Assembly: GCF_053078305.1 (NCBI RefSeq)
Contig: NZ_CP166879.1
Reading direction: 5' to 3' (one strand)
Length of the DNA: 64,000 nt
Every line of letters starts with the position of its first letter. The first letter of the stretch is position 1. This document shows positions 1,316-58,452 of this stretch, in pieces. Made by a program: the position numbers and the translations under genes. The notes under the pieces were generated by a model. It saw only the letters and a program-made list of their open reading frames with translations. It searched no databases and had not been told where the DNA came from.

Positions 1316-2377
1316 TTACAGCGCAATACGAATCACATCGTCTGGCTGGGTAGCTTCCTGCTGTTTAGTGGATTTTTGTTTCACACTGACATACAGCGTT
1401 TTGCCATCGGCAGACAGCGCCAGGCTGTTCGGATGAGTCGGCGTATCGAACGTTTTCACCACTTTATAGCTTTTCGCGTCAATCACACTGACTTTACCTG
1501 CCTGACGATGCGTTACGTAGGCTTCATTACGCGCTGGGTTAAACAGCACAGCCAGTGATTCCGGTGCCGCAACCTTCGCCAGAATATTGCCATTACGGGT
1601 ATCGACCACTAACACTTCTGCGGCTTTAGAATCGGTGATAAATGCACGCTGCCTGGCGGTATCAAGGCTAATGTTGATAAAGAAGTGCTCTTTGCCGTCA
1701 TCCAGCAGCTTTTTACGGCTGAGGATTTTATTGTCGGCGGTGTCGATGGTAATCAATTCGCCGTCAGCGTTAGTGGTGTAAAGACGTTTGCCTTTGCTAT
1801 CCAGCGCCAGACCGGTACTCATTTTACCGGTGTTCTGGATGGCGGTTTTCAGTTTGATATTCTCGCCATCAACGACCCAAATCACGCTCTCTTTACCAAT
1901 ACCACTGATGTAAACGGTGTTCGTGGCATCATCAGCTACCAGCTCACGCGGTTGCAGCGGGCGCACCTCTTCCGTGCGCTTACGATCATCCAGCACCAGA
2001 CGGCCTTTCACTTCGCCCGTTTTGGCATCTATCGCCGTGACCGCGCTGTTTACGGTGTTACCAAACCACAACGTCTGAGTCGTGTTATTGATGGTGGCAC
2101 CAAACGGCTTGAGATCGTTATGGATCGCCTGCGTCACTTCCAGAGTGACCGGATCAAGACGATAAACCACGCCACCTTTATCCAGTTTGCGGCTTTGCGA
2201 AGTGGCGAGCCACAGCGCGTTTTCTTGCTGGCTATAAGCCATTTCGTAGGCACCTTTACCTACCGCTTTACGCAGCATTTCTTCTGCGGCCTGCGTACTG
2301 AATGATGAAGCAACAAGCAATGAACCTAACAGTAATGAACCACGCAGGCGCGATGAAAACAGATGACGTAAATGCAT
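1316..2377 (-). CDS. yncE: Periplasmic PQQ-like beta-propeller protein YncE
   Basis: 353-aa ORF; N-terminal signal peptide (LLLGSLLVASSFSTQAAEE); recognised as YncE. Confidence 0.9.
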   Translation of the reverse strand: MHLRHLFSSRLRGSLLLGSLLVASSFSTQAAEEMLRKAVGKGAYEMAYSQQENALWLATSQSRKLDKGGVVYRLDPVTLEVTQAIHNDLKPFGATINNTTQTLWFGNTVNSAVTAIDAKTGEVKGRLVLDDRKRTEEVRPLQPRELVADDATNTVYISGIGKESVIWVVDGENIKLKTAIQNTGKMSTGLALDSKGKRLYTTNADGELITIDTADNKILSRKKLLDDGKEHFFINISLDTARQRAFITDSKAAEVLVVDTRNGNILAKVAAPESLAVLFNPARNEAYVTHRQAGKVSVIDAKSYKVVKTFDTPTHPNSLALSADGKTLYVSVKQKSTKQQEATQPDDVIRIAL

Positions 2378-2461
2378 GACGACTCCCTTTGATGAACCGA
2401 TATTTTTGCTGCTTCACAATGCTTCGCTAAGCGTAATCATCGTTACGCTCTTGTTATAAAT

Positions 2462-2480
2462 GGGAATGGTAATCATTATT
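2462..2480. promoter_or_regulatory. Putative Fur box in yncE/yncD divergent promoter region
   Basis: gggaatggtaatcattatt matches about 15/19 of Fur consensus GATAATGATAATCATTATC; sits between an iron-associated gene pair (yncE, TonB-dependent receptor yncD). Confidence 0.4.
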
Positions 2481-2618
2481 TTCTCAAATGTGGAGCATTT
2501 CTTGCCGTTACGACTACAATTTTCTCAATTACTTAACGTATTGTGCCGTTTCATTTTCCATAAATTTACAATTTCATTACCATGACGGCGTTTTCCCATT
2601 CTTAACCTGGCTTTTTTC

Positions 2619-4721
2619 ATGAAGATTTTTTCCGTCCGACAGACCGTTTTGCCCGCCCTGCTTGTCCTTTCCCCCGTTGTTTTTGCCGCTGATGAACAGA
2701 CCATGATTGTCAGTGCCGCGCCGCAGGTGGTTTCAGAACTGGATACCCCTGCAGCAGTAAGCGTGGTGGATGGCGAGGAGATGCGCCTGGCAACACCGCG
2801 CATTAACTTGTCCGAATCACTGACCGGCGTGCCTGGTTTGCAGGTACAAAACCGGCAGAACTATGCGCAAGATTTACAGCTGTCGATTCGCGGATTTGGC
2901 TCCCGTTCCACTTACGGAATTCGCGGTATTCGCCTGTATGTGGACGGTATTCCCGCCACCATGCCCGACGGGCAAGGGCAAACATCCAACATCGATTTAA
3001 GCAGTGTGCAAAATGTGGAAGTGCTGCGTGGCCCCTTCTCTGCCCTGTATGGCAACGCGTCTGGCGGTGTAATGAATGTCACCACCCAGACCGGACAACA
3101 GCCACCAACCATTGAAGCCAGTAGTTACTACGGCAGTTTTGGCAGCTGGCGCTATGGGCTGAAAGCAACGGGCGCAACGGGAGACGGCACACAGCCCGGC
3201 GATGTTGATTACACCGTCTCAACCACGCGTTTTACGACCCACGGCTATCGTGACCATAGTGGCGCACAGAAAAATTTAGCCAATGCCAAACTGGGCGTAC
3301 GCATTGATGAAGCCAGCAAATTAAGCCTGATTTTCAATAGTGTGGATATCAAAGCAGATGACCCGGGTGGGCTAACCAAAGCAGAATGGAAGGCGAATCC
3401 ACAACAAGCGCCTCGTGCAGAACAGTACGACACGCGAAAAACCATCAAGCAAACTCAGGCTGGGTTGCGCTATGAACGTAGCCTGAGTTCGCGGGATGAT
3501 ATGAGTGTGATGATGTATGCCGGAGAGCGAGAAACGACCCAGTACCAGTCAATACCCATGGCGCCACAACTTAACCCGTCACATGCGGGCGGCGTGATTA
3601 CCCTGCAACGCCATTACCAGGGAATAGACAGCCGCTGGACACACCGTGGTGAACTGGGCGTTCCGGTCACGTTCACTACCGGCCTGAACTACGAAAACAT
3701 GAGTGAAAACCGCAAGGGCTACAATAACTTCCGCCTGAATAGCGGCATGCCGGAGTACGGGCAAAAAGGTGAGTTGCGTCGCGACGAACGCAATCTGATG
3801 TGGAACATCGATCCCTATTTACAGACGCAGTGGCAGCTGAGCGAAAAACTGTCGCTGGATGCTGGCGTGCGCTACAGCTCCGTGTGGTTTGATTCCAACG
3901 ACCATTACGTTACTCCGGGTAACGGCGATGACAGCGGTGATGCCAGTTATCACAAATGGCTACCAGCCGGATCGTTAAAATATGCAATGACCGATGCCTG
4001 GAATATCTATCTGGCAGCCGGGCGTGGTTTTGAAACGCCGACGATTAATGAGCTGTCTTATCGCGCTGATGGGCAAAGCGGTATGAACTTTGGTTTAAAA
4101 CCATCCACCAACGATACAATTGAGATCGGCAGTAAAACGCGTATTGGTGATGGGCTGCTTAGTCTCGCATTGTTCCAGACCGACACCGATGATGAAATTG
4201 TTGTCGATAGCAGTAGCGGTGGGCGTACGACTTACAAAAATGCTGGAAAGACCCGTCGTCAAGGCGCTGAACTGGCATGGGATCAACGTTTCGCGGGAGA
4301 TTTTCGCGTAAACGCGTCCTGGACCTGGCTTGATGCGACCTATCGCAGCAATGTTTGCAATGAACAGGATTGTAACGGTAATCGGATGCCAGGGATCGCC
4401 CGTAATATGGGCTTTGCGTCGATAGGTTATGTACCGGAAGATGGCTGGTATGCAGGCACGGAAGCGCGTTATATGGGCGATATTATGGCAGATGATGAAA
4501 ATACGGCCAAGGCGCCGTCTTATACTCTCATCGGCTTATTCACCGGGTATAAATACAATTACCACAATTTAACTGTGGATTTATTTGGTCGTGTCGATAA
4601 TTTATTCGATAAAGAATACGTTGGTTCTGTCATTGTCAATGAGTCAAACGGGCGATATTACGAACCTGCGCCCGGACGAAATTATGGTGTCGGCGTGAAT
4701 ATCGCATGGCGATTTGAGTAA
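2619..4721 (+). CDS. yncD: TonB-dependent outer-membrane receptor
   Basis: 700-aa ORF; signal peptide MKIFSVRQTVLPALLVLSPVVFA; plug/barrel-type sequence with aromatic-rich C-terminus; recognised as YncD. Confidence 0.92.
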   Translation: MKIFSVRQTVLPALLVLSPVVFAADEQTMIVSAAPQVVSELDTPAAVSVVDGEEMRLATPRINLSESLTGVPGLQVQNRQNYAQDLQLSIRGFGSRSTYGIRGIRLYVDGIPATMPDGQGQTSNIDLSSVQNVEVLRGPFSALYGNASGGVMNVTTQTGQQPPTIEASSYYGSFGSWRYGLKATGATGDGTQPGDVDYTVSTTRFTTHGYRDHSGAQKNLANAKLGVRIDEASKLSLIFNSVDIKADDPGGLTKAEWKANPQQAPRAEQYDTRKTIKQTQAGLRYERSLSSRDDMSVMMYAGERETTQYQSIPMAPQLNPSHAGGVITLQRHYQGIDSRWTHRGELGVPVTFTTGLNYENMSENRKGYNNFRLNSGMPEYGQKGELRRDERNLMWNIDPYLQTQWQLSEKLSLDAGVRYSSVWFDSNDHYVTPGNGDDSGDASYHKWLPAGSLKYAMTDAWNIYLAAGRGFETPTINELSYRADGQSGMNFGLKPSTNDTIEIGSKTRIGDGLLSLALFQTDTDDEIVVDSSSGGRTTYKNAGKTRRQGAELAWDQRFAGDFRVNASWTWLDATYRSNVCNEQDCNGNRMPGIARNMGFASIGYVPEDGWYAGTEARYMGDIMADDENTAKAPSYTLIGLFTGYKYNYHNLTVDLFGRVDNLFDKEYVGSVIVNESNGRYYEPAPGRNYGVGVNIAWRFE

Positions 4722-4730
4722 TTACCTTGA

Positions 4731-4750
4731 TGCCCGGTATTTGCCGGGCA
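4731..4750. terminator. Hairpin between convergent yncD and mcbR
   Basis: tgcccgg-tatt-tgccgggca inverted repeat followed by ttta; 10 bp after yncD stop. Confidence 0.45.
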
Positions 4751-4756
4751 TTTACT

Positions 4757-5422
4757 TTAACGATTGTATTGCTGGTATAAAATAGCAATATTTTGTTGCA
4801 TAATTTCAGCAAGACAATGTCTGCATCCCTCTTTGTCTTTTGCTTTTAACGCAGCGAGTAACAGATGATAGTTTTCTATATGCTCCCGTAATTCCGCTGG
4901 ATTAATCGCTTCATAGAGATAATGTAAACCAGGTCCCATCCTGACCCACAGTTGCTCAATCATCTCACACAGGATGGGCATATTTGAGCGATGATAAATC
5001 GCTAAGCGAAATAGCCTGTTTACATTAATGATTTGTTCCATGTCGCCCTTTTCTTGCGCCTGCTGTAATTTCTCGAGCAATTCCTGGAGTTCCGCCAGGT
5101 CTTGCGGGGTGAGGTTTTCAACAGCCAGAGCAACTGCCATTAATTCCAGTTCGTAGCGGATCCGATTGATTTCGTCTAATTGACGTTTCCCCACTTCCGG
5201 AACTGTAAATGCTTGCGCTGGTGCGACAGAAAGCGCATTCACCGAAACCAGACGTAATAATGCTTCACGCACAGGTGTAATACTCATACCTAATTGCTCC
5301 GCCAGATTTTTAGTAATCAGGCGTGCGCCAGGTTTTAGTGCGCCAATACTAAGCTGATGTTTCAGGTCGTTCTCAACCTGCAGAGTCAAACTGACATGTT
5401 TCATTTTTTCCGTTCCAGGCAT
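4757..5422 (-). CDS. mcbR: GntR-family transcriptional regulator McbR (YncC)
   Basis: ORF 4757..5479; start trimmed to internal Met (MPGTEKMKHVSL...) giving 221 aa; N-terminal GntR HTH (ITKNLAEQLGMSITPVREALLRL). Confidence 0.88.
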   Translation of the reverse strand: MPGTEKMKHVSLTLQVENDLKHQLSIGALKPGARLITKNLAEQLGMSITPVREALLRLVSVNALSVAPAQAFTVPEVGKRQLDEINRIRYELELMAVALAVENLTPQDLAELQELLEKLQQAQEKGDMEQIINVNRLFRLAIYHRSNMPILCEMIEQLWVRMGPGLHYLYEAINPAELREHIENYHLLLAALKAKDKEGCRHCLAEIMQQNIAILYQQYNR

Positions 5423-5619
5423 TTTAATTCCTTCGCGTGTTTTCTGTCCAACCCTGCCTGCATGGCAGAAGGAATTCACCTGGTGTATTAAAGTGAATAA
5501 TCATAAACCACTCACCTTTGTTGTTATTAGCAGCAGAACAATGATGTGGTTAGTTAATTAAAGCTGAAAATAAGCTTTTTGCCTGGATTTTTATGGCGGC
5601 TTACGCCGCCGTTGAAACT

Positions 5620-6657
5620 TTAATCATCACCCGCCACGCGGATCACCACTTTGCCGAAGTTTTTACCCTTCAGCAGGCCGATAAACGTCTGTGGCGCATT
5701 CTCTAAACCGTCAGTAATTTCTTCGCGGTAGTGGATTTTATCCTCTTTCACCCATTGCCCCATCTCCTTCTGAAACTCATGGATGCGGTGACCATAATCC
5801 TGAGCGATAATAAACCCTTGCAAGCGAATACGTTTTTTCAGCACCGTTGCCATCAACAGGGGTAAACGATCCGGACCGGGTGGTAGCTCTGTAGCGTTAT
5901 AGCTGCTCACTAAGCCACAAACGGGAATGCGCGCAGATGTATTAAGTAATGGTAGCACTGCATCAAATACCTTACCGCCCACGTTTTCATAATAGATATC
6001 AATACCTTTTGGGCACGCTTTCGCCAGTTGTTCGGCAAAATCGTCCGCGTGGTGATCAAGGCAAACATCGAAGCCTAACACCTCGGTAGCATGGCGGCAT
6101 TTTTCCGCGCCACCGGCTACCCCCACCACTCTGCAACCTTTAAGTTTGCCGATTTGCCCCACCGTCGCCCCCACTGGTCCTGTCGCCGCAGCTACCACCA
6201 ACGTTTCGCCCTCTTTAGGCTGACCGATATCCAGCAGCCCCATATAAGCGGTAAAGCCTGGCATCCCCAGCACACCCAGCGACCACGATGGATTTTGCGG
6301 ATGATCGCCAAGTTTCACCAGATCATCACCACTGGATATGTCATAGTCCTGCCATCCACTGTAGCCCAGCACCCAGTCGCCAGGCTGATAATCAGGATGA
6401 TTCGACTTCACGACACGGCTCACCGTACCGCCGACCATCACGCCGCCAATATCAACCGGCGGTGAATAAGATGGCTCATCGCTCATACGTCCACGCATAT
6501 ACGGGTCCAGGGACAAATAAACTGTGCGCAGTAACACCTGTCCTTCACCCGGTGTGGCGACATCATCTTCTTCAAGACGGAAATTCTCCGGAACCGGTGC
6601 GCCATGCGGACGCGAGGCCAGAACCCAACGTCGATTACGCTGCTTTTGTTGCCCCAT
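5620..6657 (-). CDS. curA: NADPH-dependent curcumin/dihydrocurcumin reductase (MDR-family oxidoreductase)
   Basis: ORF 5620..6750; start trimmed to MGQQKQRNRR (345 aa); nucleotide-binding motif AAATGPVGATVGQIGK. Confidence 0.88.
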   Translation of the reverse strand: MGQQKQRNRRWVLASRPHGAPVPENFRLEEDDVATPGEGQVLLRTVYLSLDPYMRGRMSDEPSYSPPVDIGGVMVGGTVSRVVKSNHPDYQPGDWVLGYSGWQDYDISSGDDLVKLGDHPQNPSWSLGVLGMPGFTAYMGLLDIGQPKEGETLVVAAATGPVGATVGQIGKLKGCRVVGVAGGAEKCRHATEVLGFDVCLDHHADDFAEQLAKACPKGIDIYYENVGGKVFDAVLPLLNTSARIPVCGLVSSYNATELPPGPDRLPLLMATVLKKRIRLQGFIIAQDYGHRIHEFQKEMGQWVKEDKIHYREEITDGLENAPQTFIGLLKGKNFGKVVIRVAGDD

Positions 6658-6837
6658 AATGCTCTCCTGTGCTTTTGGCATGAATCCATCAATAGTAGCA
6701 GGCTCACGGGATTGGTTTTGTTTGCAGCCGTCACATCCCCTCTGCAACACGCAATAATTTCATCGAGGAATCCGTTGCTTCGGGCTGTTTTCGATAGTAT
6801 TGATAACATCATCATCATTATTTTATTGAGGCCAGAC

Positions 6838-7356
6838 ATGTCCATCCGTTTTGCCCGCAAAGCCGACTGTGCTGCCATTGCGGAAATTTATAACCACGCC
6901 GTGTTGTATACGGCGGCTATCTGGAATGACCAAACGGTGGATGCAGATAACCGCATTGCCTGGTTTGAAGCGCGGACCATAGCAGGTTATCCGGTGCTGG
7001 TAAGTGAAGAAGATGGCGTAGTGACGGGATATGCCTCATTTGGCGACTGGCGTAGTTTCGATGGTTTTCGCCATACCGTGGAACATTCGGTTTATGTCCA
7101 TCCCGATCATCAGGGCAAAGGTCTGGGGCGTAAATTGTTAAGCCGATTGATTGATGAAGCGCGGGATTGCGGGAAGCATGTCATGGTCGCCGGGATCGAA
7201 TCGCAAAATCAGGCCTCGCTGCATCTGCACCAGTCGCTGGGATTTGTCGTCACCGCACAAATGCCGCAGGTGGGCACTAAATTTGGGCGCTGGCTGGATC
7301 TGACATTTATGCAGTTGCAACTCGACGAACGCACTGAACCGGACGCGATTGGATGA
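6838..7356 (+). CDS. mnaT: GNAT-family N-acyltransferase MnaT (YncA)
   Basis: In-frame ATG at 6838 (MSIRFARKADCAAIAEIYNH) within ORF 6604..7356; GNAT fold motifs; 172 aa. Confidence 0.88.
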   Translation: MSIRFARKADCAAIAEIYNHAVLYTAAIWNDQTVDADNRIAWFEARTIAGYPVLVSEEDGVVTGYASFGDWRSFDGFRHTVEHSVYVHPDHQGKGLGRKLLSRLIDEARDCGKHVMVAGIESQNQASLHLHQSLGFVVTAQMPQVGTKFGRWLDLTFMQLQLDERTEPDAIG

Positions 7357-7802
7357 ATCAGTCGCTCACCCTTGCCTTTTTGATTGCCGCCGGAATTGGT
7401 CTGGTAGTCCAGAACACGCTGATGGTTCGCATCACCCAGACCTCCTCTACCATTCTCATCGCCATGTTGCTGAACTCACTGGTGGGGATTGTGCTCTTTG
7501 TTTCTATTTTATGGTTTAAACAAGGTATGGCGGGGTTTGGCGAACTGGTGTCCAGCGTGCGCTGGTGGACACTTATACCTGGCTTGCTGGGATCGTTTTT
7601 TGTCTTCGCCAGTATCAGCGGATATCAGAATGTGGGAGCGGCGACAACTATTGCAGTACTGGTCGCCAGCCAGCTGATTGGCGGTCTGGTTCTGGATATC
7701 TTCCGCAGTCATGGCGTACCACTACGGGCGTTGTTCGGCCCAATTTGTGGCGCAATTTTACTTGTGGTTGGCGCCTGGTTGGTAGCCAGACGCTCATTTT
7801 AA
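7353..7802 (+). CDS. ydcZ: Inner-membrane protein YdcZ (DMT-like, DUF606)
   Basis: 149-aa hydrophobic ORF; start overlaps mnaT stop (ATGA). Confidence 0.85.
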   Translation: MNQSLTLAFLIAAGIGLVVQNTLMVRITQTSSTILIAMLLNSLVGIVLFVSILWFKQGMAGFGELVSSVRWWTLIPGLLGSFFVFASISGYQNVGAATTIAVLVASQLIGGLVLDIFRSHGVPLRALFGPICGAILLVVGAWLVARRSF

Positions 7803-8036
7803 TCACAGGATGGTGCCGCCTTTGGTTAACTGTTCATGGCGCGCTTCCATATCTTCTTTATGCTTGCGACCGTGATGAGCAATAGCGGTGCGCAAACGCT
7901 GCTGCTGGGTGTAGCGATCTTCCCGACTTAACTCCGCGTCATCGCTCAGGGCGATTAATAATTCGTTCATATGGGCAATGACGCTCTCTTCAATCGCGGC
8001 ATCCACACGCGCGATGACTTCATCCAGATGCGACAT
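7803..8036 (-). CDS. ydcY: Small protein YdcY (DUF2526)
   Basis: 77-aa ORF, recognised sequence MSHLDEVIARVDAAIEES. Confidence 0.8.
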   Translation of the reverse strand: MSHLDEVIARVDAAIEESVIAHMNELLIALSDDAELSREDRYTQQQRLRTAIAHHGRKHKEDMEARHEQLTKGGTIL

Positions 8037-8121
8037 ACTTTCTCCTTAGCCACTTGTGAAATTTATCGATTCATCCAAATGATATAAGTCTGCGTGGTGC
8101 CGTCAAGCCAGTGAGTAAGAT

Positions 8122-8295
8122 TTAAAACAGTGAAAACAACAGCGCCACCGGGAAACTCATCGGCCATGTTGCCCCCACCAGAAAGGCGCTTAAGAAACGG
8201 ATGCGTTTCTTATCGTGAGAAAGAAACCAAGTGATAAGAAATGCGATTGCTGCCATAACCGCATAAAAAACAAGCATGTGTTGATAGAGAGACAT
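8122..8295 (-). CDS. ortT: Small membrane toxin-like protein OrtT (YdcX)
   Basis: ORF 8122..8343 trimmed to MSLYQHMLVFYAVMAAIAFLITWFL (57 aa, two TM segments). Confidence 0.8.
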   Translation of the reverse strand: MSLYQHMLVFYAVMAAIAFLITWFLSHDKKRIRFLSAFLVGATWPMSFPVALLFSLF

Positions 8296-8489
8296 GTACG
8301 GGCGTCCAGCCAGATGAATAAAACGCGCGCAAATATGCGTCATTTTTTGACGTACATCAAGTTTTTTAACCGGTTTGAGAAAAAAACATCAAACAGCAAC
8401 TTGCCCTTATCCATCTTCAGAATGAGTATTATTGCGGATTTTCTTAACCCGTACTATACACATAGGGGCAATGATAAAAGGTGGCAAAA

Positions 8490-8585
8490 ATGAATGTTTC
8501 CAGTAGAACTGTAGTACTGATAAATGTCTTTGCTGCTGTTGGTTTGTTTACTCTTATCTCTATGAGATTTGGCTGGTTTATTTGA
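8490..8585 (+). CDS. yncL: Small single-TM protein YncL (31 aa)
   Basis: Below the 60-aa ORF-track cutoff; ATG at 8490 preceded by SD aaaggtgg; translation MNVSSRTVVLINVFAAVGLFTLISMRFGWFI; recognised as YncL. Confidence 0.75.
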   Translation: MNVSSRTVVLINVFAAVGLFTLISMRFGWFI

Positions 8586-8607
8586 TGTAGTGATTTTGCA
8601 CGCAGCA

Positions 8608-8642
8608 CGTACTGTCAGAGAAATCAGTGCTCTGACAGTACG
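8608..8642. repeat. Perfect 13-bp inverted repeat (hairpin) downstream of yncL and patD
   Basis: cgtactgtcagag-aaatcagtg-ctctgacagtacg; no adjacent T-tract on either strand. Confidence 0.6.
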
Positions 8643-8681
8643 CAAGATCATCTCATACTCTTACGATCTGCAATATTATCC

Positions 8682-10106
8682 TTAATGTTTAACCATGACG
8701 TGGCGGACGACGGTGTAATCCTCCAGCCCATAAAGTGACATATCCTTGCCGTAACCAGAAAGTTTCTGCCCACCGTGCGGCATTTCACTTACCAGCATGA
8801 AATGGGTATTGACCCAGGTACAACCATATTGCAGCCGTGCACTGACGCGATGCGCCCTGCCCACATCTTTCGTCCATACCGAAGATGCAAGTCCGTACTG
8901 GCTGTCATTCGCCCAGTTCACCACCTGTTCTTCGTTGTCGAAGAGCGTAACACTCACTACTGGACCAAATACCTCTTTTTGCACGATGGCATCGTCCTGT
9001 AATGCGCCAGCCAGCAGCGTCGGCGCATAGTAATAGCCATTACCCTTGCGCTTTTCACCGCCAGTGATCACTTTGATGTGCCCTGTCGCTTTCGCCTCTT
9101 CTACTGCCTTGCTGACGCGTTCGAGATGCGCCAGCGAGCTTAAAGGTCCAAGCTCCGTAGACTCGTCATCCGGCGCACCAGATTTTAACGTTGCCACCGC
9201 AGCACCCAGTTTTTCCACCAGCGTATCGTAAATGCCTTTTTGCGCGTAGATCCGACAAGCCGCAGTACAATCCTGTCCAGCATTGTAATAGCCAAATGTA
9301 CGTACACCTTCGACCACTGCTTCAATATCCGCATCATCAAAAACAATCACTGGCGCTTTGCCACCAAGTTCCATATGAGTACGCTTAATGGACGGCGCGG
9401 TATGGCTGATGATGTGCTCGCCGGTGGCGATAGAGCCCGTCAGCGACACCATCCGCACTTTAGGATGTCCGGTCAGCGGATCGCCCACGGTTTTGCCTCT
9501 GCCAAACAGTACGTTAATCACGCCTGCCGGGAAGATATCTTTCGCCAGCTCTGCCAACTTCAACGCGGTCAGCGGGGTAATTTCTGATGGTTTAAGCACT
9601 ACGCAGTTCCCTGCCGCCAGCGCCGGAGCCAGTTTCCACGCTGCCATCATCAGCGGATAATTCCACGGTGCGATAGAAGCCACGACCCCCAACGGATCGC
9701 GACGGATCATCGAAGTATGACCTTCAAGATATTCACCTGCCGCCAGACCATTCAGACAGCGCGCCGCACCCGCGAAAAAGCGAAAAACATCGACAATCGC
9801 CGGGATTTCATCATTGAACGCACTATGCAGCGGTTTGCCACAATTACGGGACTCCAGTTCGGCAAAAACCTGACCATTTTCTTCGATAACATCAGCCAGT
9901 TTCAGCAGACATTCCGCACGCACTTTCGGCGTGGTTTGCCCCCATTCGGCAAATGCTGCATCTGCCGCGCGCACAGCAGCATCGACCTGCTCTGCGGATG
10001 CCTCGGCAATCTCCAGTAAAACGTCCCCCGTTGCCGGATTATAGACAGGCTGTTTTTCCCCTTCGCCGCTAACCAGTTCTCCGTTAATCAGTAACTTATG
10101 TTGCAT
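8682..10106 (-). CDS. patD: Gamma-aminobutyraldehyde dehydrogenase (aldehyde dehydrogenase family)
   Basis: 474-aa ORF; ALDH motifs MELGGKAP and catalytic-Cys region GQDCTAACR. Confidence 0.92.
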
Positions 10107-51672: not shown

Positions 51673-54600
51673 TTAGAACGTTTTCTTAAAGTTCAGCATC
51701 ACGCCTTTGTCGCTGATGCCGTCCTCTTTCCAGTGATACGCATCCAGATTCAGCGAACTTTCTTTGCTACTGTACTTCACGCCGACGCTCGCCAGGCTGT
51801 TGATACCGCCGCCCTTCTGACCGTCATCGACGTTAAAGTGCTGGCTGCCTGCCCCTGCAAGGCTTGCCGTGCGCTGGCTCTTGCTGTAGCTCAGGTTCGG
51901 CCCGCCTTCCAGCGTCGCATTCGCGCTCCAGCCGCCTTTCCCTGCGTAGTCCAGTTTCAGCCCGACGATGCTGTCCACCGCCGTTTCGCTGCCGCTGTTC
52001 ATGCTCAGGTTAAAGTCTCCGGCATTGCGCTCCTGATAGCCGCCTTCCAGCGTGTGACGCAGTTTCACTCCGGCGTACGGGGTGATTTTCAGCCCTTCGC
52101 GCGGTTCAAAGGTTTTTGCCCCTTCGCTGCGGAACTCCAGGTACTGCTGTTTCACATCCGTGTCTGCCGTTTTGCTGACGTCGCCGTAAGCCACCGAGCG
52201 GCTGCTGTCGAGGTTATGCACGTCATAGCGCAGGGCGTTGTTCCAGTTCATCCCGTTGTCGAAGAACATCTGGTGCTTCAGGCCGAAGAACTGGCTGTAA
52301 CCACCGGTTACGCCGTTGTCGCCCGCTTTCTGCGCACCGTCGCCATCCAGACGGGCGATACCGTACTCCAGACTCAGGCTCTGGCTTTCGCTCAGGTCAA
52401 CGGTTTTACGCAACGCCAGCATGTCGTACTCGGTGTTATTTCCGAGTTCAGCACGCGGGTCGCCTTTCGCCACCACGTTAAACGCCAGACCGTTGCCCAT
52501 CTTCGGCGCGGCGTCCGCCAGCATGCTGAAGCGGTTGCTCAGCACGCGCGCCTCGCGGAATACCGTGGTTGCCTGGCTGCCGCTCACCTGCTTCAGGGCG
52601 CTGTTCAGTTCGGCAGTAGTGCCGACGTTCAGGCTGGTATACAGCTCGTTGTTGGTGTAACCCGCATCCAGTGCCTTCGCCACATCGTTCACCGAAGCAT
52701 CGGTCGCCACATCGGTGTAGGCGTTTTTGCTCATGGTGACGTCAACGTTGCCGCTGGCATCGGTGCTGCCTTTGGCGGTCCACACCACAGACGTTGAGGT
52801 GATGGCATCGGCGTCGGTCAGGTTGCTGCCTTCCACCACGTTGTCGAAACTGACCGTGGTGTCTGCCGTACCGGCGGCGAAACCGGTGTTGATCCCGACA
52901 CCGTTCATGCTGGCGTTGTTGACCTTGAGCTTACCGGCGCTGCCGTCAACGTTGGTACCGACCACATAACCGTTGAGGTTGTTGCTACCGCTGCCAGTCG
53001 CATCTCCCCCTGTTGTTACGCCACCAGAACTGGTGTTCGGCACTTCCGGCAACGTGTAGTCGGTGTAATGCACTTCGGTATTATTACCGTTGTTGCCGTT
53101 CACCCCTTCCACGTTCACGCTGTCGCCCTGCTTAATCAACCCGGAACCGGTCACGCCATCGGCAATCACCACGGTACCGTTGTTAACGATATGGCCTTGT
53201 GTTCCCAACACACTGAATGCAAAGGAATCGTTAGCATAGATATTAATCGTGCCGTTGTTCTCGATCACCGCGTCTGCGGTAGCGTTGGCATCCAGTTGCA
53301 TACCAATTAACCCGGTATCGGTGGTACCTTCGGTGCCGAGATTGATAACGCCGTTGTTAACCAGTTGTGCGTTTTTATCACCTTCCATCGCCACGGCATT
53401 GTTGCCGCTGATGTTCATCACGCCATCGTTGAGGGCAACATAGTTGTTGTGGGTGAATTTAACTGCGCTGGCGTTGTCTTTATCGAAGTTAATCACCCCG
53501 CCATCCTGGTTCCACAGGAAGGCATCGCTTTCTGTCGCACCAGCGGTACTTACCGCCACAGTGACTTTCGCATCCACCACGCCCTTGTTAATAAACTGGC
53601 TGGCGCCGTCGTCATAGTGAATAGCGCCCGCGCCAAGTGCGGCATCCAGCGTCATTTCACCGGTGTTATATAACGTGGCGTTAGCATTGCTTCCCTGGAA
53701 GCGAATGGCGTTTTTACTGTTATCAAGGATGAGCTTGCCGCTGTTGTTGAACGTTGATTGGTCGTCAATATCCAGCGTCCCGGCATTGTTATTTTCATCC
53801 TGATAACCCATTTTCCAGGTCCCCGCGTTATTCACCACCGCAGAGTTATAGAGAATGGCACCTTTACGCGCCTCGCCGCCTGCAAGGTTATTGAATACCG
53901 CATCGCCCTGAGCGTTAACGCGCGCCGACGCAATACCGCTGTTATTCACCGTACCATCGTGAAGTTGTAAAGTTGACAGGGAACCGGTGTTATTAATTAC
54001 CGCGTTGCTGTTTTTCTCAATTTTTACGACGTCATTAAGCGTTCCGTTGTTATTGAAGGTTCCTCCTTCCAGAGTCACCGTGTTCAATACACCTTCATTG
54101 GTTAACGCACCGCCTTCATTCACGACGATGGCTGAGCTAATGGTTCCGCTCGACTCGTTAACCAGCGCACCATTTTCGAGTATCCTGATCGTTCCATTTT
54201 TAACAGCACCCGCACTGGTGACATCCCCGTTGATAATCGCACCTGACGATAATAATACGGTCTCACCCGCAGAACTTAATACATCGCCATCATCATATAA
54301 ATCGGCAATATAATTATCCGTTGGATTATATTCATCGGCCCCCTGGCAAACGCCAAAGGTACAAATTGTGCCATAGTTGATAATAAGCCCAGTGCCATCG
54401 TTATAGAATGCCTGACCATTTTCCGCGTTAATGTTGATTACGCCTGTCTGGTCATTAATGGCGGTGCCTTCGTGATAAACCGCCATGCCGACGAGTTTAT
54501 TCACACCGAGAGAATCGTTGTAATTTTCATTTTTCTCCAGGTTGATGGTTCCCTGGTTAATGACCGTGTTGGTATTACCATACGCCGCCATCCCCGCACC

Positions 54601-57528
54601 CGCGTTGTAGACGGTAATCACACCATTCTCGTGGTTGGTAGACGTCGCTTTGGTTAATGCTCCATAGTAAGCATCGGTTCCCGAAGCCATTCCCACACCG
54701 AAATCTTTCGCCGTGCTATTTGCGATGTTATTACGCAGCGATGTTTCATCATTTTCATCGACCCACAGCGTATCCAGGGTGATTTGCCCTTCGTTATCCG
54801 CGGTTGATTTATCGATAGCCAACATCCCCACGCTGCCACGACCATACATCTCAATAATGCCCGTTTCGCCGTTCAGAATGGATGACGAGTAGCTGGCAAG
54901 CATACCTGTCAAACCTAATGCTCTGTTATTGAAAGAGGTACCGTCAGACAAGTTCCACTCTGCCGGATAATTCAGCACGCTGTGCTGATTCATCATTTTG
55001 GTGGTCAAGGTGCCATTGTTAACGCCAATCCCCCCGTATTCAACATCGAAGACTTTTGGTGCCGGGTCGGTACCAAAATCGTACATCGCCAGGCCAATGG
55101 ATCCGTTATTGATGACCGTTGAATCTTTATTCCAGGCAGCCGCAAAACCGATATTTTTCAGTTCAACTTCACCGTTATTGGTCGCCTTCGCACCAGAATC
55201 AATACTAATGGTGGATAACGCTACACGATAATAATAAGTGAAAGAATCCACATCACTCATATCAAACGTTGCGTCAGCGCCAATCTCCAGCTCCGCGCCA
55301 TGGCTCAACTGAATGAGATTTTCGAACCCCAGCGGGAACTCGCCGCTGATGGTTGACTCACCATTCAGGTAGACCGAGGAATGCCCATCAACGTTAATAA
55401 GCGGTGTGTCTCCGATACCACGACGAGATGCGGCAGGTTTTGAGCCATCATCCATGACATTTTTTTCACCGACAAAATGAACACCGCCATTAAGCGTAAA
55501 GGTATTGTCATCGCCAGCAATAACAATACCCGCAATGTGTTCCTGAGCACCGTCGTAACTCGCATAGGAACGCGACGTGGTTTCACTATCAGCAACAACG
55601 GTTAACTGACCATCCAGCGTGACGTCGTTGTTGTCACCGCTGATATTTACCCCGGTTGAGGGATTAAAGAAGTAAGGCTGCGCATTATCGGCTTTCTGAT
55701 CTTTATCAACCAGAATACTGCCCGCTATTTCGATAGTATTACCATCACCCGAAACATTAACACCTGTCGCTTCTTGCCCTGTCACATTCAGCCCATAAGT
55801 CGACAGCGTCATGTTGTTATTATCGCCAGAGACATCAAGACCGGTGGAGAAATCCCCAACGTCTAACCCGCCCGCAAGTGAAATATTGGCTTTATCCCCT
55901 GCAACGCTGACACCGGTTCCGGCGTTGGTCGCGGTAATATCACCGACGTTAACAAATGTCGCATTATTACCGTCGATCTGAATGCCGATTGCATTTTCAC
56001 CTGTAGCGGCCTGGCCAACATTGAGGTCGCCCATGTTGATCACGCTGACGCCATCACCATCAAGCAGCATGCCAATAGAGTTATCTTCGATGACCGTAAT
56101 ATTACCTTTGTTGCTAACGAACGTATCATTGCCGTCAACGTCAATACCGTGCGCACCACCGCTTACGTATAAGTCGCCTTCCTGTTTGATGGTGGCACCG
56201 TCACCGACAATTTTCGAGCCAGTGGAATTCTCACCGTCAACGCTCATGGTACCTTGATTATCGACCCGCGCATTATCGCCATTGATAAGGCTACCCGTAC
56301 CACCATTGGTGATGGTCGAGTCGCCCGCAGTGTTCAGCGTAGCATTATCGCCATTGATGATTACTGCGGTACCGCCGTCAACTTCCGTCTCGCCGTTGTT
56401 ATTGATAGTGATATCGTCACCAGTAAGGATACCAACGACCGAACCCTCGCCGATGGCGGTCGTTTTACCGTCGTTGTTGAGGGTGATGTTGTCACCCTCA
56501 ACCGTCATGACAGTACCGCCATTCAGCGCCGTATTGCCGCCCTGATCGGTGATGATCGCATTACCAAAATCAATCGCAGTTCCGGTTGTGCCATCAACAA
56601 CGACACCGGCCTCTTTAGTGATATGGATGAGCCCATCATCGTCGTAGCTCCAGGTGATGCCACCTGCCGTATTTACGCCATCAAAGATGACGGTGTTGCT
56701 GTCGTCATGGACTGTCCAGCCCTTGACTATCGTCGTCAGGCCATCAGGCGCGGTTAAGGTGTAACTCCCATCGGCATTTTGGCTGTAGGTAAAGGTGGTT
56801 TCGCGAATTTTGACGGTTTTCGCGTCCTGATCCCAGGTTACGTCATTTTTATAGACGACAGGATCGTGTTTAACCGGGGTATCGCCACCATCGTCTGGCG
56901 GAACAGGCGTATCACCGCCGTCGTCTGGAACTGGCGTATCACCGCCATCATCTGGTGGAACCGGCGTATCACCGCCGTCATCTGGTGGAACCGGCGTATC
57001 ACCGCCGTCATCTGGCGGAACTGGCGTATCACCGCCGTCATCTGGCGGAACTGGCGTATCACCGCCGTCATCTGGCGGAACCGGCGTATCATCGCCGTCA
57101 TCTGGCGGAACTGGCGTATCACCGCCGTCATCTGGCGGAACTGGCGTATCACCGCCGTCATCTGGCGGAACCGGCGTATCACCGCCGTCGTCTGGCGGAA
57201 CAGGCGTATCACCGCCATCATCCGGAACTGGGGAGTTATTATGGTGGTGATTGTCATCGTCACTTAAGGTATATATAGCAATTCCCGTAGCTACTGCAGC
57301 AAGACCTGCAGCTGCCCATGGTAAAACTGCACTATCTTTATTTTCTCTGCACTCCGCGGATAAATTTTCTAGCTGCTCTTTGCTCAGGGAATGAATATTT
57401 GCCGGACATGTTATCTTACTGGACTTACGTGTTTTTTCGGTTGAGTCGGGTATTGAAGTATCCGCAGCCCATGTCTGGCTACTTAACGCCATGGCAACAC
57501 AAACAGACAATAATTTTTTCCTTTGCAT
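51673..57528 (-). CDS. ydbA: Giant AIDA-like autotransporter (type Va) YdbA, intact
   Basis: ORF 51673..57567; start set at ATG 57528 (MQRKKLLSVCVAMALSSQTWA signal peptide, SD aagga 8 nt upstream); Pro/Asp-rich repeats, long Gly/Asn/Thr-rich passenger, C-terminal beta-barrel ending ...LNFKKTF. Confidence 0.88.
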   Translation of the reverse strand: MQRKKLLSVCVAMALSSQTWAADTSIPDSTEKTRKSSKITCPANIHSLSKEQLENLSAECRENKDSAVLPWAAAGLAAVATGIAIYTLSDDDNHHHNNSPVPDDGGDTPVPPDDGGDTPVPPDDGGDTPVPPDDGGDTPVPPDDGDDTPVPPDDGGDTPVPPDDGGDTPVPPDDGGDTPVPPDDGGDTPVPPDDGGDTPVPDDGGDTPVPPDDGGDTPVKHDPVVYKNDVTWDQDAKTVKIRETTFTYSQNADGSYTLTAPDGLTTIVKGWTVHDDSNTVIFDGVNTAGGITWSYDDDGLIHITKEAGVVVDGTTGTAIDFGNAIITDQGGNTALNGGTVMTVEGDNITLNNDGKTTAIGEGSVVGILTGDDITINNNGETEVDGGTAVIINGDNATLNTAGDSTITNGGTGSLINGDNARVDNQGTMSVDGENSTGSKIVGDGATIKQEGDLYVSGGAHGIDVDGNDTFVSNKGNITVIEDNSIGMLLDGDGVSVINMGDLNVGQAATGENAIGIQIDGNNATFVNVGDITATNAGTGVSVAGDKANISLAGGLDVGDFSTGLDVSGDNNNMTLSTYGLNVTGQEATGVNVSGDGNTIEIAGSILVDKDQKADNAQPYFFNPSTGVNISGDNNDVTLDGQLTVVADSETTSRSYASYDGAQEHIAGIVIAGDDNTFTLNGGVHFVGEKNVMDDGSKPAASRRGIGDTPLINVDGHSSVYLNGESTISGEFPLGFENLIQLSHGAELEIGADATFDMSDVDSFTYYYRVALSTISIDSGAKATNNGEVELKNIGFAAAWNKDSTVINNGSIGLAMYDFGTDPAPKVFDVEYGGIGVNNGTLTTKMMNQHSVLNYPAEWNLSDGTSFNNRALGLTGMLASYSSSILNGETGIIEMYGRGSVGMLAIDKSTADNEGQITLDTLWVDENDETSLRNNIANSTAKDFGVGMASGTDAYYGALTKATSTNHENGVITVYNAGAGMAAYGNTNTVINQGTINLEKNENYNDSLGVNKLVGMAVYHEGTAINDQTGVININAENGQAFYNDGTGLIINYGTICTFGVCQGADEYNPTDNYIADLYDDGDVLSSAGETVLLSSGAIINGDVTSAGAVKNGTIRILENGALVNESSGTISSAIVVNEGGALTNEGVLNTVTLEGGTFNNNGTLNDVVKIEKNSNAVINNTGSLSTLQLHDGTVNNSGIASARVNAQGDAVFNNLAGGEARKGAILYNSAVVNNAGTWKMGYQDENNNAGTLDIDDQSTFNNSGKLILDNSKNAIRFQGSNANATLYNTGEMTLDAALGAGAIHYDDGASQFINKGVVDAKVTVAVSTAGATESDAFLWNQDGGVINFDKDNASAVKFTHNNYVALNDGVMNISGNNAVAMEGDKNAQLVNNGVINLGTEGTTDTGLIGMQLDANATADAVIENNGTINIYANDSFAFSVLGTQGHIVNNGTVVIADGVTGSGLIKQGDSVNVEGVNGNNGNNTEVHYTDYTLPEVPNTSSGGVTTGGDATGSGSNNLNGYVVGTNVDGSAGKLKVNNASMNGVGINTGFAAGTADTTVSFDNVVEGSNLTDADAITSTSVVWTAKGSTDASGNVDVTMSKNAYTDVATDASVNDVAKALDAGYTNNELYTSLNVGTTAELNSALKQVSGSQATTVFREARVLSNRFSMLADAAPKMGNGLAFNVVAKGDPRAELGNNTEYDMLALRKTVDLSESQSLSLEYGIARLDGDGAQKAGDNGVTGGYSQFFGLKHQMFFDNGMNWNNALRYDVHNLDSSRSVAYGDVSKTADTDVKQQYLEFRSEGAKTFEPREGLKITPYAGVKLRHTLEGGYQERNAGDFNLSMNSGSETAVDSIVGLKLDYAGKGGWSANATLEGGPNLSYSKSQRTASLAGAGSQHFNVDDGQKGGGINSLASVGVKYSSKESSLNLDAYHWKEDGISDKGVMLNFKKTF
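56877..57228. repeat. 27-bp coding tandem repeat, about 12 copies, encoding P(P)DDGGDTPV
   Basis: Near-identical 27-nt units (ccgccgtcatctggcggaaccggcgtatcac and variants) visible directly; one 24-nt unit and one G-to-D variant; generates artefactual ORFs on the opposite strand and other frames. Confidence 0.9.
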
Positions 57529-57935
57529 ATAAAATTCCTTAGATCTAGACCGTGCGTAACAAGCCATGCAGAATTTGAAGATAAATCGTAGTAAATATTC
57601 ATAGTGAAATAAGCAATAAAGAAATGCTTATATAATTCACAAAATCAATATTAAAATCAGGCAAGTAAAAGCATACAAAAAAACAGTTGATGGAATTATA
57701 TTCCACAAAAAACTCACTTCAATCTAAAAATTAACGACAAAAAACAAAAACACACTAATAATTCATTGACGCTGCATATATATTTTGTGATTACATATAT
57801 ATTGGTAATGATTTGTTATTTAAGGGAAGGATATATAAGGTTTTTGTAGAAATACCCACGGTAATTAAGCATGCTAACGTCAGTTTAAATACTGTAAAAG
57901 ATCATTAATAGATACATTTTGTAGCCAACTATAAT

Positions 57936-58262
57936 TTATTTGCGCAACCATTTACCATTAATTCCCTGAACATATTGCCCCGACTTCGCGCGAGCAACAA
58001 GCTTTTGTCCAGCCAGTTTGGCTATCTCTTTAGTGGATACATTATTTTGCTTTGCCAGTTGTTGGTAACTATGGTTACGAGCTTCATTAATATCTTTTAC
58101 TAATGCCTGTGTTTCGGCATCCGTTTGTAGCGCCACCAGGTAACCGTTAAGCGTTTCACCTACCCGCCCCTGACTTCTGGCTTCGTTCAGGGTTAAAGCC
58201 ATTGCACTGTCGCTCATCAGGCCAATGGCCCATACAGCTATGAGTAATGTTCTTTTCATCAT
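57936..58262 (-). CDS. ydbL: Periplasmic DUF1318 protein YdbL
   Basis: ORF 57936..58340 trimmed to MMKRTLLIAVWAIGLMSDSAMA (signal peptide); 108 aa. Confidence 0.82.
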   Translation of the reverse strand: MMKRTLLIAVWAIGLMSDSAMALTLNEARSQGRVGETLNGYLVALQTDAETQALVKDINEARNHSYQQLAKQNNVSTKEIAKLAGQKLVARAKSGQYVQGINGKWLRK

Positions 58263-58266
58263 CACC

Positions 58267-58452
58267 TCAAAATAGATCGCTACGGGTTTTGAGCAGGTCT
58301 TCAACGTCCTTATCCGCTTTAATGATGATTTCATGCTCAATTTTAACGTTCATATTAATGGTGATTGGCTCTTTCGGCGCAGCTACTTCAATGCGAGGCG
58401 TGCAACCAACCAACATAAAAGAGGACGCAAACGCGGCTATCACTATTTTCAT
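58267..58452 (-). CDS. ynbE: Lipoprotein YnbE
   Basis: 61-aa ORF; lipobox MLVGC; start overlaps ydbH stop (ATGA). Confidence 0.85.
   Translation of the reverse strand: MKIVIAAFASSFMLVGCTPRIEVAAPKEPITINMNVKIEHEIIIKADKDVEDLLKTRSDLF

Follow-up and report, generated by a model that had tools for sequence, protein, structure and literature searches.

The locus described here raises the question of whether a tandem repeat inside the gene of a large, putatively exported protein is a fixed part of that protein or a site at which its length changes from strain to strain. The DNA under study is a stretch of 64,000 nucleotides (the window; contig NZ_CP166879.1 of assembly GCF_053078305.1), and the gene is ydbA, which is read from the minus strand. 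Tandem Repeats Finder (TRF) reported one array at 56872-57222 (period 30, 11.8 copies, 91% matches, score 548), and this array in ydbA is the sole tandem repeat in the window. By codon-level parsing it comprises ten 30-bp units that encode PPDDGGDTPV, while units 1 and 11 are 27 bp long and encode PDDGGDTPV. We consider it very probable that the array is an in-frame coding minisatellite, or variable-number tandem repeat (VNTR), i.e. a linker of variable length that is changed by in-register misalignment of its units.

A preliminary description of the stretch had placed about twelve units at 56877-57228, with a period of 27 bp and one 24-bp unit. The array is real, lies almost at those coordinates (parsed span in Table 1) and has 12 units, whereas its actual period is 30 bp and its shorter units are the two of 27 bp, none of 24 bp being present. 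The single G-to-D variant that had been noted is in unit 5 and is the only amino-acid variant within the window allele. The array lies inside the ydbA coding sequence (CDS), 300 nt from its start, and covers residues 115-232 of the 1964-aa open reading frame (ORF), or residues 102-219 when counted from the likely start M14. It forms, as had been described, an acidic and Pro-rich in-frame spacer near the N-terminus, each 10 residues containing 3 Pro and 3 Asp, and has a net charge of approximately -36 across 118 residues.

Copy number was compared in a collection of 5,426 complete E. coli genomes by BLAST. Using a query that comprised the array and its flanks, the array-type allele was found in 373 of these genomes (~7%), always on the chromosome. 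With this query spans are ambiguous for alleles exceeding the query, since the matching pieces overlap in the repeat, and it was replaced by a flank-only query of 602 nt, for which array length is the span minus 602. Both flanks were detected in 371 genomes, and lengths were tabulated for 109 distinct genomes, drawn from the best 60 matches and an even-step sample of 59. Array length in these 109 genomes ranged from 57 to 534 bp, corresponding to 2-18 units, and fell into 15 length classes, all of which were multiples of 3; steps between alleles were 27, 30 or 57 bp and larger. The comparison across E. coli genomes that the preliminary description had proposed thus yields variation and not invariance. 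In the tabulated genomes of the O157:H7/O55:H7 class, arrays of 2, 4, 5, 7, 8 or 9 units were present with a mode of 7 units (204 bp; 35 of 56 genomes), and an O55:H7 strain that was read directly had 6 units. The remaining tabulated genomes carried 13 units (20 genomes), 15 units (15 genomes) or else 2, 10, 11, 12, 14, 16 or 18 units. When the even-step sample was considered, 7 units were found in 31 of 49 genomes of the O157:H7/O55:H7 class, and Nei diversity was 0.70 overall and 0.58 in the O157 class. Direct reading of 21 loci gave lengths that matched the span-based values exactly, and all of them were in frame through the array.

Genomes with an equal flank score (1122 bits, i.e. essentially identical flanks) carried arrays of 57, 324, 354, 414 and 444 bp. 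Since genomes with identical flanks differ in array length, the latter evolves faster than substitutions accumulate in the 600 flanking bases. As a control we used the K-12-type N-terminus, which has the same architecture with a degenerate, non-tandem Pro-rich stretch (PPTPPDDESDDTPVPPTPGGDEIIPDDPDDTPTPP). This allele was present in 2,404 genomes, and the full-length matches among the 40 listed spanned 656-664 bp, except for one with an IS1 insertion. Because the length of the control barely varies among the matches listed, length instability is a property of the tandem array and not of the locus.

The 21 alleles were also written as barcodes, in which each distinct unit sequence is represented by one letter. 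All of them begin with unit A and close with unit I, and in most non-O157 alleles the closing units are GHI. A comparison of the window allele, ABCCDCCEFGHI, with that of strain ETEC6335, ABCCDCEFGLI, reveals the loss of a single C unit. The O157/O55 alleles AJKCI, AJAJKCI and AJAJAJKCI differ by a two-unit block of 57 bp (AJ), and one or two block or unit events suffice to produce each of the nine structural alleles of O157/O55 from AJAJKCI. Block duplications are also apparent in GPEC1446, which carries (BN)x3, and in UCPROB-002, which carries (CNEE)x2. The allele of the O157:H16 strain Santai corresponds to that of THO-010 minus 90 bp and contains a chimeric unit, PPDDGDDMPV, whose 5' part derives from the G-to-D unit and whose 3' part derives from the T-to-M unit; likewise, units U and V in O157/O55 are hybrids of the A/J type. 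The two-unit allele AI is present in 2017C-4109, of the O157-type flank class, as well as in OkiPb01695, of a non-O157 class, and therefore collapse to two units happened more than once.

These block duplications, unit losses and chimeric units are the footprints that are expected of in-register misalignment. In the mechanism that we propose, near-identical units would misalign in register, by replication slippage or unequal recombination, so that single units or larger blocks would be gained or lost as a whole, at times with a chimeric unit left behind. Which of the two processes operates, and whether it depends on RecA, is a matter of inference. Each event would shift the linker between the N-terminal cap and the passenger by multiples of 9-10 residues while the frame is kept, and the linker may serve as an extended spacer with only a loose constraint on its exact length. 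Since every unit is 27 or 30 bp, the frame is never broken, and the array therefore adjusts length and cannot serve as an on/off switch for the gene. Head-to-tail copies far above chance, strain differences in whole units, and units that are multiples of 3 and keep the frame are the marks of a coding VNTR or minisatellite, and all of them were found here. Frame-preserving change in length by slippage or recombination, as the preliminary description had anticipated, agrees with the multiple-of-3 lengths, the block duplications and the chimeric units.

Among the 20 unit types catalogued for a test of selection we counted 15 distinct single-base variants, 12 of which are synonymous and 3 non-synonymous (G to D, T to R, T to M). 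In the consensus unit 24 of 90 possible changes are synonymous, and the 12:3 excess has a binomial P of 2.5e-5. Two further ydbA arrays at the syntenic locus were evaluated: one with a 27-bp unit has 10 nucleotide versions of PPDDGGNVT with a single N-to-D change, and one with a 21-bp unit has 8 nucleotide versions, all of which encode PDDGGNT. As variants are skewed towards synonymous changes in three arrays, the data suggest a constraint on the repeat peptide at the protein level, be it present or past. Our best estimate is that the type of peptide is constrained and its length loosely so. The array with the 21-bp unit represents a second allele class of E. coli ydbA, which is present in 44 complete genomes with 13-16 copies among the ten full-length matches listed, and was read at locus 1501-7413. 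The third class, PPDDGGNVT x16 (15 tandem by a strict regular expression), is located on a metagenome contig in the same synteny and had no close match in the complete E. coli genomes.

To describe the surroundings of the array at the protein level, AlphaFold2 (AF2) was run on the N-terminal 338 aa with a 26-sequence family alignment. In the model the array is without secondary structure, with a predicted local distance difference test score (pLDDT) of 53-60, while the BigA_N domain that follows is all-beta with a pLDDT >90. The array is thus best read as a linker, predicted to be extended or disordered, highly acidic and non-globular, between an N-terminal module and BigA_N. A sequence search of the PDB with the N-terminal region of ydbA returned nothing significant. 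In a search of 1.84 billion representative proteins, 63 family representatives were recovered, which share the N-terminal plan. The linkers of these relatives at the position of the array include PPDDGGNVT x16, PDDGGNT x14, PIPPDDGGDT x7, PTPPDDGGDT x4 and PDDGGDSGT x4-5, whereas others consist of PVD, PIPDPT, PDPKPG or DNGG repeats, or there is almost no linker. Because relatives carry different repeats at this one linker position, the repeats expanded independently, and the position is an expansion hot spot across the BigA/YdbA family. A protein search with the N-terminal 338 aa returned 14 proteins, mostly truncated, which showed other arrays and were unsuited to copy-number statistics.

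Many family proteins in the databases end at or near the array. An exact two-unit pattern scan of genome contigs, a pattern too strict for diverged arrays, hit Escherichia sp. E1V33 only, and the locus of this strain begins within the array (1-60), probably at a short-read contig break. Since contigs and proteins break there, draft genomes and metagenomes under-report the array.

Several points weigh against the proposal that the array is a minisatellite whose length is changed by misalignment, or narrow it, and they are considered here together with the rival explanations on which they bear. Lengths were tabulated for 109 of the 373 carrier genomes, and copy number was taken from assemblies, some of which may collapse or expand a repeat of 60-530 bp. 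Short-read assemblies do break at the array, as in Escherichia sp. E1V33, and many database proteins are truncated there, which would be in keeping with copy-number differences that arise for the most part artefactually, where assemblies collapse the repeat or resolve it wrongly. However, this is very unlikely: the collection consists of "complete genome" assemblies, independent assemblies of relatives agree (204 bp in 35 of 56 genomes of the O157:H7/O55:H7 class, and identical sister pairs), the differences between alleles are structured, consisting of block changes and chimeric units as biology would produce them, and array length follows the flank haplotype. Another limiting observation is that close relatives nearly always share the array allele, so that the rate of change is modest. 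An allele was shared within each of the following sets of sister isolates: UCPROB-001/002, TUM18780/18530, EC1515/EC974, the two 86-24 derivatives, TT12A/B, and TW14359 with RM6067W. This also bears on the idea of a phase-variation (contingency) locus, at which a change in copy number toggles ydbA at high frequency. Switches of this kind classically involve tandem repeats in the genes of surface proteins, and some strains have an intact and others an inactivated ydbA, but hardly any probability can be given to this idea, as units are 27 or 30 bp, 21 of 21 alleles read are in frame, 15 of 15 length classes are multiples of 3, the array lies within the CDS, sister isolates have common alleles, and inactivating lesions, where read, lie elsewhere in ydbA (stops, insertion sequence (IS) insertions or frameshifts downstream). 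On/off switching by the array is effectively refuted, and the array appears to behave as a minisatellite of moderate instability rather than as a contingency locus that changes at high frequency. The term "hypervariable" in the preliminary description is accordingly too strong. The moderate rate fits what is described for VNTRs of E. coli, namely a slippage model with lower instability of long units, units >8 bp varying less than 6-bp loci (PMC3777172).

The remaining adverse points concern the gene and the fold. Inactivation of ydbA is frequent among strains, and much of the variation may be neutral drift in a decaying gene. In O157:H7, O55:H7 and relatives, ydbA is annotated as two CDS (~960-1030 aa and 819 aa) that are ~220 bp apart (locus 4042-4262); it is disrupted by IS1 in 23CRST027 and by IS2/IS30 in K-12, and frameshifted in NCTC9112 and OkiPb01695. 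In the O157:H7/O55:H7 lineage ydbA is probably inactive though array length keeps changing. Moreover, the fold does not require a long linker, as there are family members in which the linker is almost absent. An alternative to be taken seriously is a selectively neutral minisatellite in a gene that decays across E. coli, with a length that is without phenotype. Pseudogenisation in K-12, O157:H7/O55:H7 and several other strains speaks for it, as does the distribution of lengths among the loci read: arrays of 2-9 units were all in disrupted genes, while intact ORFs of 1934-2014 aa had 10-18 units, and disrupted genes with 12 and 14 units occurred as well. Short arrays in broken genes fit, and may hint at, a deletion bias after inactivation, in a sample that is small and phylogenetically clustered. 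Yet intact ORFs are common in the non-O157 class, unit variants are biased towards synonymous changes in three independent arrays, and repeats recur at this position across the family. We regard neutrality as possible, if on the unlikely side, and it overlaps with the explanation that we favour, according to which sequence is constrained and length only loosely. A quite different proposal starts from the peptide: DDGGD resembles the Gly/Asp-rich nonapeptide of repeats-in-toxin (RTX) proteins, and the units, which are Gly/Asp-rich and had been called nonapeptides in the preliminary description, might form a calcium-binding beta-roll. This is extremely improbable, because the unit, which is 10 residues long and includes 3 Pro, departs from the GGxGxDxUx motif, there is no Pfam match to RTX or HemolysinCabind, AF2 shows no beta structure in the array, and relatives have PVD, PIPDPT or PDPKPG repeats instead. 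The RTX-like reading is ruled out at the motif level.

Table 1. Coordinates of ydbA and of the features in and around its repeat array (positions in the window).
Feature	Coordinates	Strand	Basis or remark
ydbA CDS, 1951 aa from likely start M14 (MQRKK...)	51673..57528	-	PGAP (Prokaryotic Genome Annotation Pipeline) starts the homologous gene at the MQRKK codon
Autotransporter beta-domain PF03797, predicted C-terminal outer-membrane barrel	51763..52362	-	67.8 bits vs cutoff 26
BigA beta-sandwich domain (BigA_beta, PF25783)	52720..52971	-	Pfam, 89.6 bits, above cutoff
BigA_N beta-barrel domain PF25784, directly after the array	56617..56859	-	Pfam, 109 bits, above cutoff; residues 237-317
12-unit in-frame array, 354 bp	56872..57225	-	TRF and codon-level parsing of the minus-strand ORF; barcode ABCCDCCEFGHI
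Array unit 11, second 27-bp unit, "H"	56902..56928	-	Codon-level parsing
Array unit 5, PPDDGGDTPV with GGT to GAT, G to D	57079..57108	-	Codon-level parsing
Array unit 1, 27 bp, PDDGGDTPV	57199..57225	-	Edge unit "A"; first unit in 21/21 alleles read
Acidic and His-rich patch SDDDNHHHNNSPV, abutting the array	57226..57264	-	Sequence, alignment
Gly/Ala-rich hydrophobic segment AVLPWAAAGLAAVATGIAIYTL	57265..57330	-	Family-conserved, pattern W.W.AGG.AA.AA.GIA; ~45 residues past the signal peptide
Two-cysteine segment CPxxIxxLxxxxxxxLxxxC	57349..57408	-	C41, P42 and C60 invariant in 26 family members
Signal-peptide-like N-terminus MQRKKLLSVCVAMALSSQTWA, then AD	57466..57528	-	Inspection; conserved in the family alignment
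Shadow ORF, 162 aa	56779..57267	+	Open because the repeat unit is without stops
Shadow ORF, 141 aa	56838..57263	-	Another frame of the coding strand
Shadow ORF, 107 aa	56955..57278	+	ORF list
Promoter-like site TTGAAG-16-TATAAT, 10/12	57695..57722	-	Upstream of ydbA; consensus match only

Counted from M14, the array is preceded by a signal-like segment (1-21), the segment with C41 and C60, a hydrophobic segment (67-88) and the Asp/His patch, and is followed by BigA_N. The putative signal peptide, with MQRKK, a hydrophobic core and TWA/AD, is canonical-looking by inspection and conserved in the family. A reading as lipoprotein was rejected on inspection, as LSVC at residues 7-10 is too near the N-terminus and has Val at -1. 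For the two-cysteine segment AF2 returned a pLDDT of 75-79. For the hydrophobic segment, the mean Kyte-Doolittle value is 1.86 and the position-independent sum on the Hessa scale amounts to +2.5 kcal/mol over 19 residues, with similar values in K-12, and the segment exceeds the signal peptide's own core in hydrophobicity. AF2 confidence is low over this segment, and the model does not settle whether it is a helix or a membrane anchor. Its Hessa value is borderline, so that the segment would probably cross the membrane and not serve as a stop-transfer sequence. A conserved hydrophobic segment is unusual at the N-terminus of an autotransporter passenger.

These features could be combined into a more far-reaching idea, in which the hydrophobic segment is a membrane-interacting tether and the array an adjustable-length rod that sets a distance, somewhat like the spacer of TonB. 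TonB has an uncleaved signal-anchor and a periplasmic (EP)n(KP)n spacer of fixed length. What the two proteins may have in common is a charged, Pro-rich and probably extended segment after a hydrophobic segment and before a folded domain; ydbA differs in that its product has a cleavable-looking signal peptide ahead of the hydrophobic segment as well as an outer-membrane barrel, and a periplasmic placement is not implied by the comparison. If the tether existed, the N-terminus of the passenger would be held at the inner membrane during export or be inserted in another membrane afterwards, and repeat number would be a functional length dial instead of a neutral polymorphism. We consider this idea improbable and mention it as a speculation.

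Turning to the gene as a whole, an upstream in-frame ATG at 57567 extends the ORF to 1964 aa (51673-57567, minus strand), and ydbA is uninterrupted in the window. Its product is, to judge from its domains (Table 1), a classical (type Va) autotransporter; the PF03797 match was obtained with the C-terminal 575 residues. In homologues, PGAP labels for the passenger read "pectate lyase-fold" and "beta strand repeat-containing". Against the NCBIfam model auto_BigA (NF033178) the product scored 1099 bits, with the match mainly in the C-terminal third. Since this is below the cutoff of 3400, the sequence identifies the protein as a relative of BigA within the BigA/YdbA family, and not as BigA itself. 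BigA is an adhesin of Salmonella with an AIDA-I-like passenger and a NalP-type barrel (Celik et al., PMC3419190). The window protein has BigA_N, BigA_beta and the C-terminal autotransporter barrel in common with it, while the auto_BigA score and the confinement of that match mainly to the C-terminal third set the two apart.

The closest complete genome is that of E. coli ES5, which is identical in the array region and shares 99.1% identity over 16.4 kb. There, the gene is located between pdxI and ydbL-ynbE-ydbH-ldhA, which is the position of ydbA, and the locus is without the paa/fea cluster that K-12 carries on the ydbL-ynbE-ydbH side. In the window (region ~57950-58450) and in all array-type genomes read, ydbA adjoins ydbL-ynbE-ydbH, and the paa/fea/tynA cluster and ynbG, which intervene in K-12, are missing at the locus in all array-type genomes read.

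Tandem repeats with strain-dependent copy number are familiar from other systems. The closest counterpart of the ydbA array is the repeat polymorphism of pertactin (Prn) of Bordetella, in which (GGxxP)n in region 1 and (PQP)n in region 2 define alleles (PMC2631898, PMC1459169). In both cases, short Pro-rich tandem repeats are located in frame in the passenger of a classical autotransporter and copy number depends on the strain. In pertactin, however, the units are 15 bp and 9 bp, belong to beta-helix loops and are immunodominant, and there is evidence that alleles shifted in the vaccine era, whereas the 30-bp units of ydbA form an N-terminal linker outside the folded domains, vary over a much larger range (2-18), are not known to have an immune role and often reside in a pseudogene. 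The array likewise resembles the VNTR loci used for multiple-locus VNTR analysis (MLVA) of E. coli (Vhec, TR, O157-n, CVN), at which whole-unit changes distinguish strains, including those within O157:H7. These loci differ from it in having mostly 6-7 bp units in the papers cited, and the ydbA array is restricted to the ~7% of complete E. coli genomes given above. Identity with Vhec1, which has 21-45 copies (PMC3519732), or with Vhec2, which has an 18-bp unit (PMC3777172), is excluded by unit size and copy range. A literature search (ydbA, Z2322-Z2325, the peptide DDGGDTP, MLVA literature), with the primary MLVA papers outside its coverage, retrieved no paper that describes the 30-bp array of ydbA.

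Polymorphism of in-frame repeats is well documented for surface proteins, and in this respect the ydbA array is of an ordinary kind and its biology unsurprising. It provides a clean and easily sized marker, which divides O157:H7/O55:H7 into at least 9 structural alleles and other lineages into many more. Of more interest are the independent repeat expansions at one linker position, with unit differences that are almost only synonymous. This recurrence would mark the linker, together with the conserved N-terminal cap, as a functional part of a large uncharacterised autotransporter family.

The array also explains noise in the annotation of ydbA, i.e. shadow ORFs, labels such as "proline-rich domain-containing protein", truncated proteins and short-read contig breaks. 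The three artefactual ORFs that had been ascribed to the array in the preliminary description were all recovered (Table 1); they are open because the repeat unit has no stop codons in those frames. The database protein P0013 enters an off-frame version of the repeat (LFHQMTVVIH...) where homologues carry the array. In ES5, PGAP divides ydbA (locus 4097-9952) into two partial pseudogene pieces and leaves a gap unannotated, although the ORF runs through without interruption and encodes 1951 aa, and the gene of O157:H16 Santai is annotated in much the same pieces with a continuous ORF of 1934 aa. Elsewhere, the product is named "proline-rich domain-containing protein", "hypothetical protein" or "EntS/YbdA MFS transporter". 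Annotation of ydbA is unreliable across genomes.

Two minor observations concern the remainder of the gene and its upstream region. The passenger of ydbA in K-12 MG1655 contains a 294-bp repeat in 3.2 copies (locus 3053-4006), which according to TRF is missing from the window allele. The ~400 bp upstream of ydbA (57530-57950) have a GC content of 25-27%; upstream regions this rich in AT are typically found at silenced genes for surface proteins.

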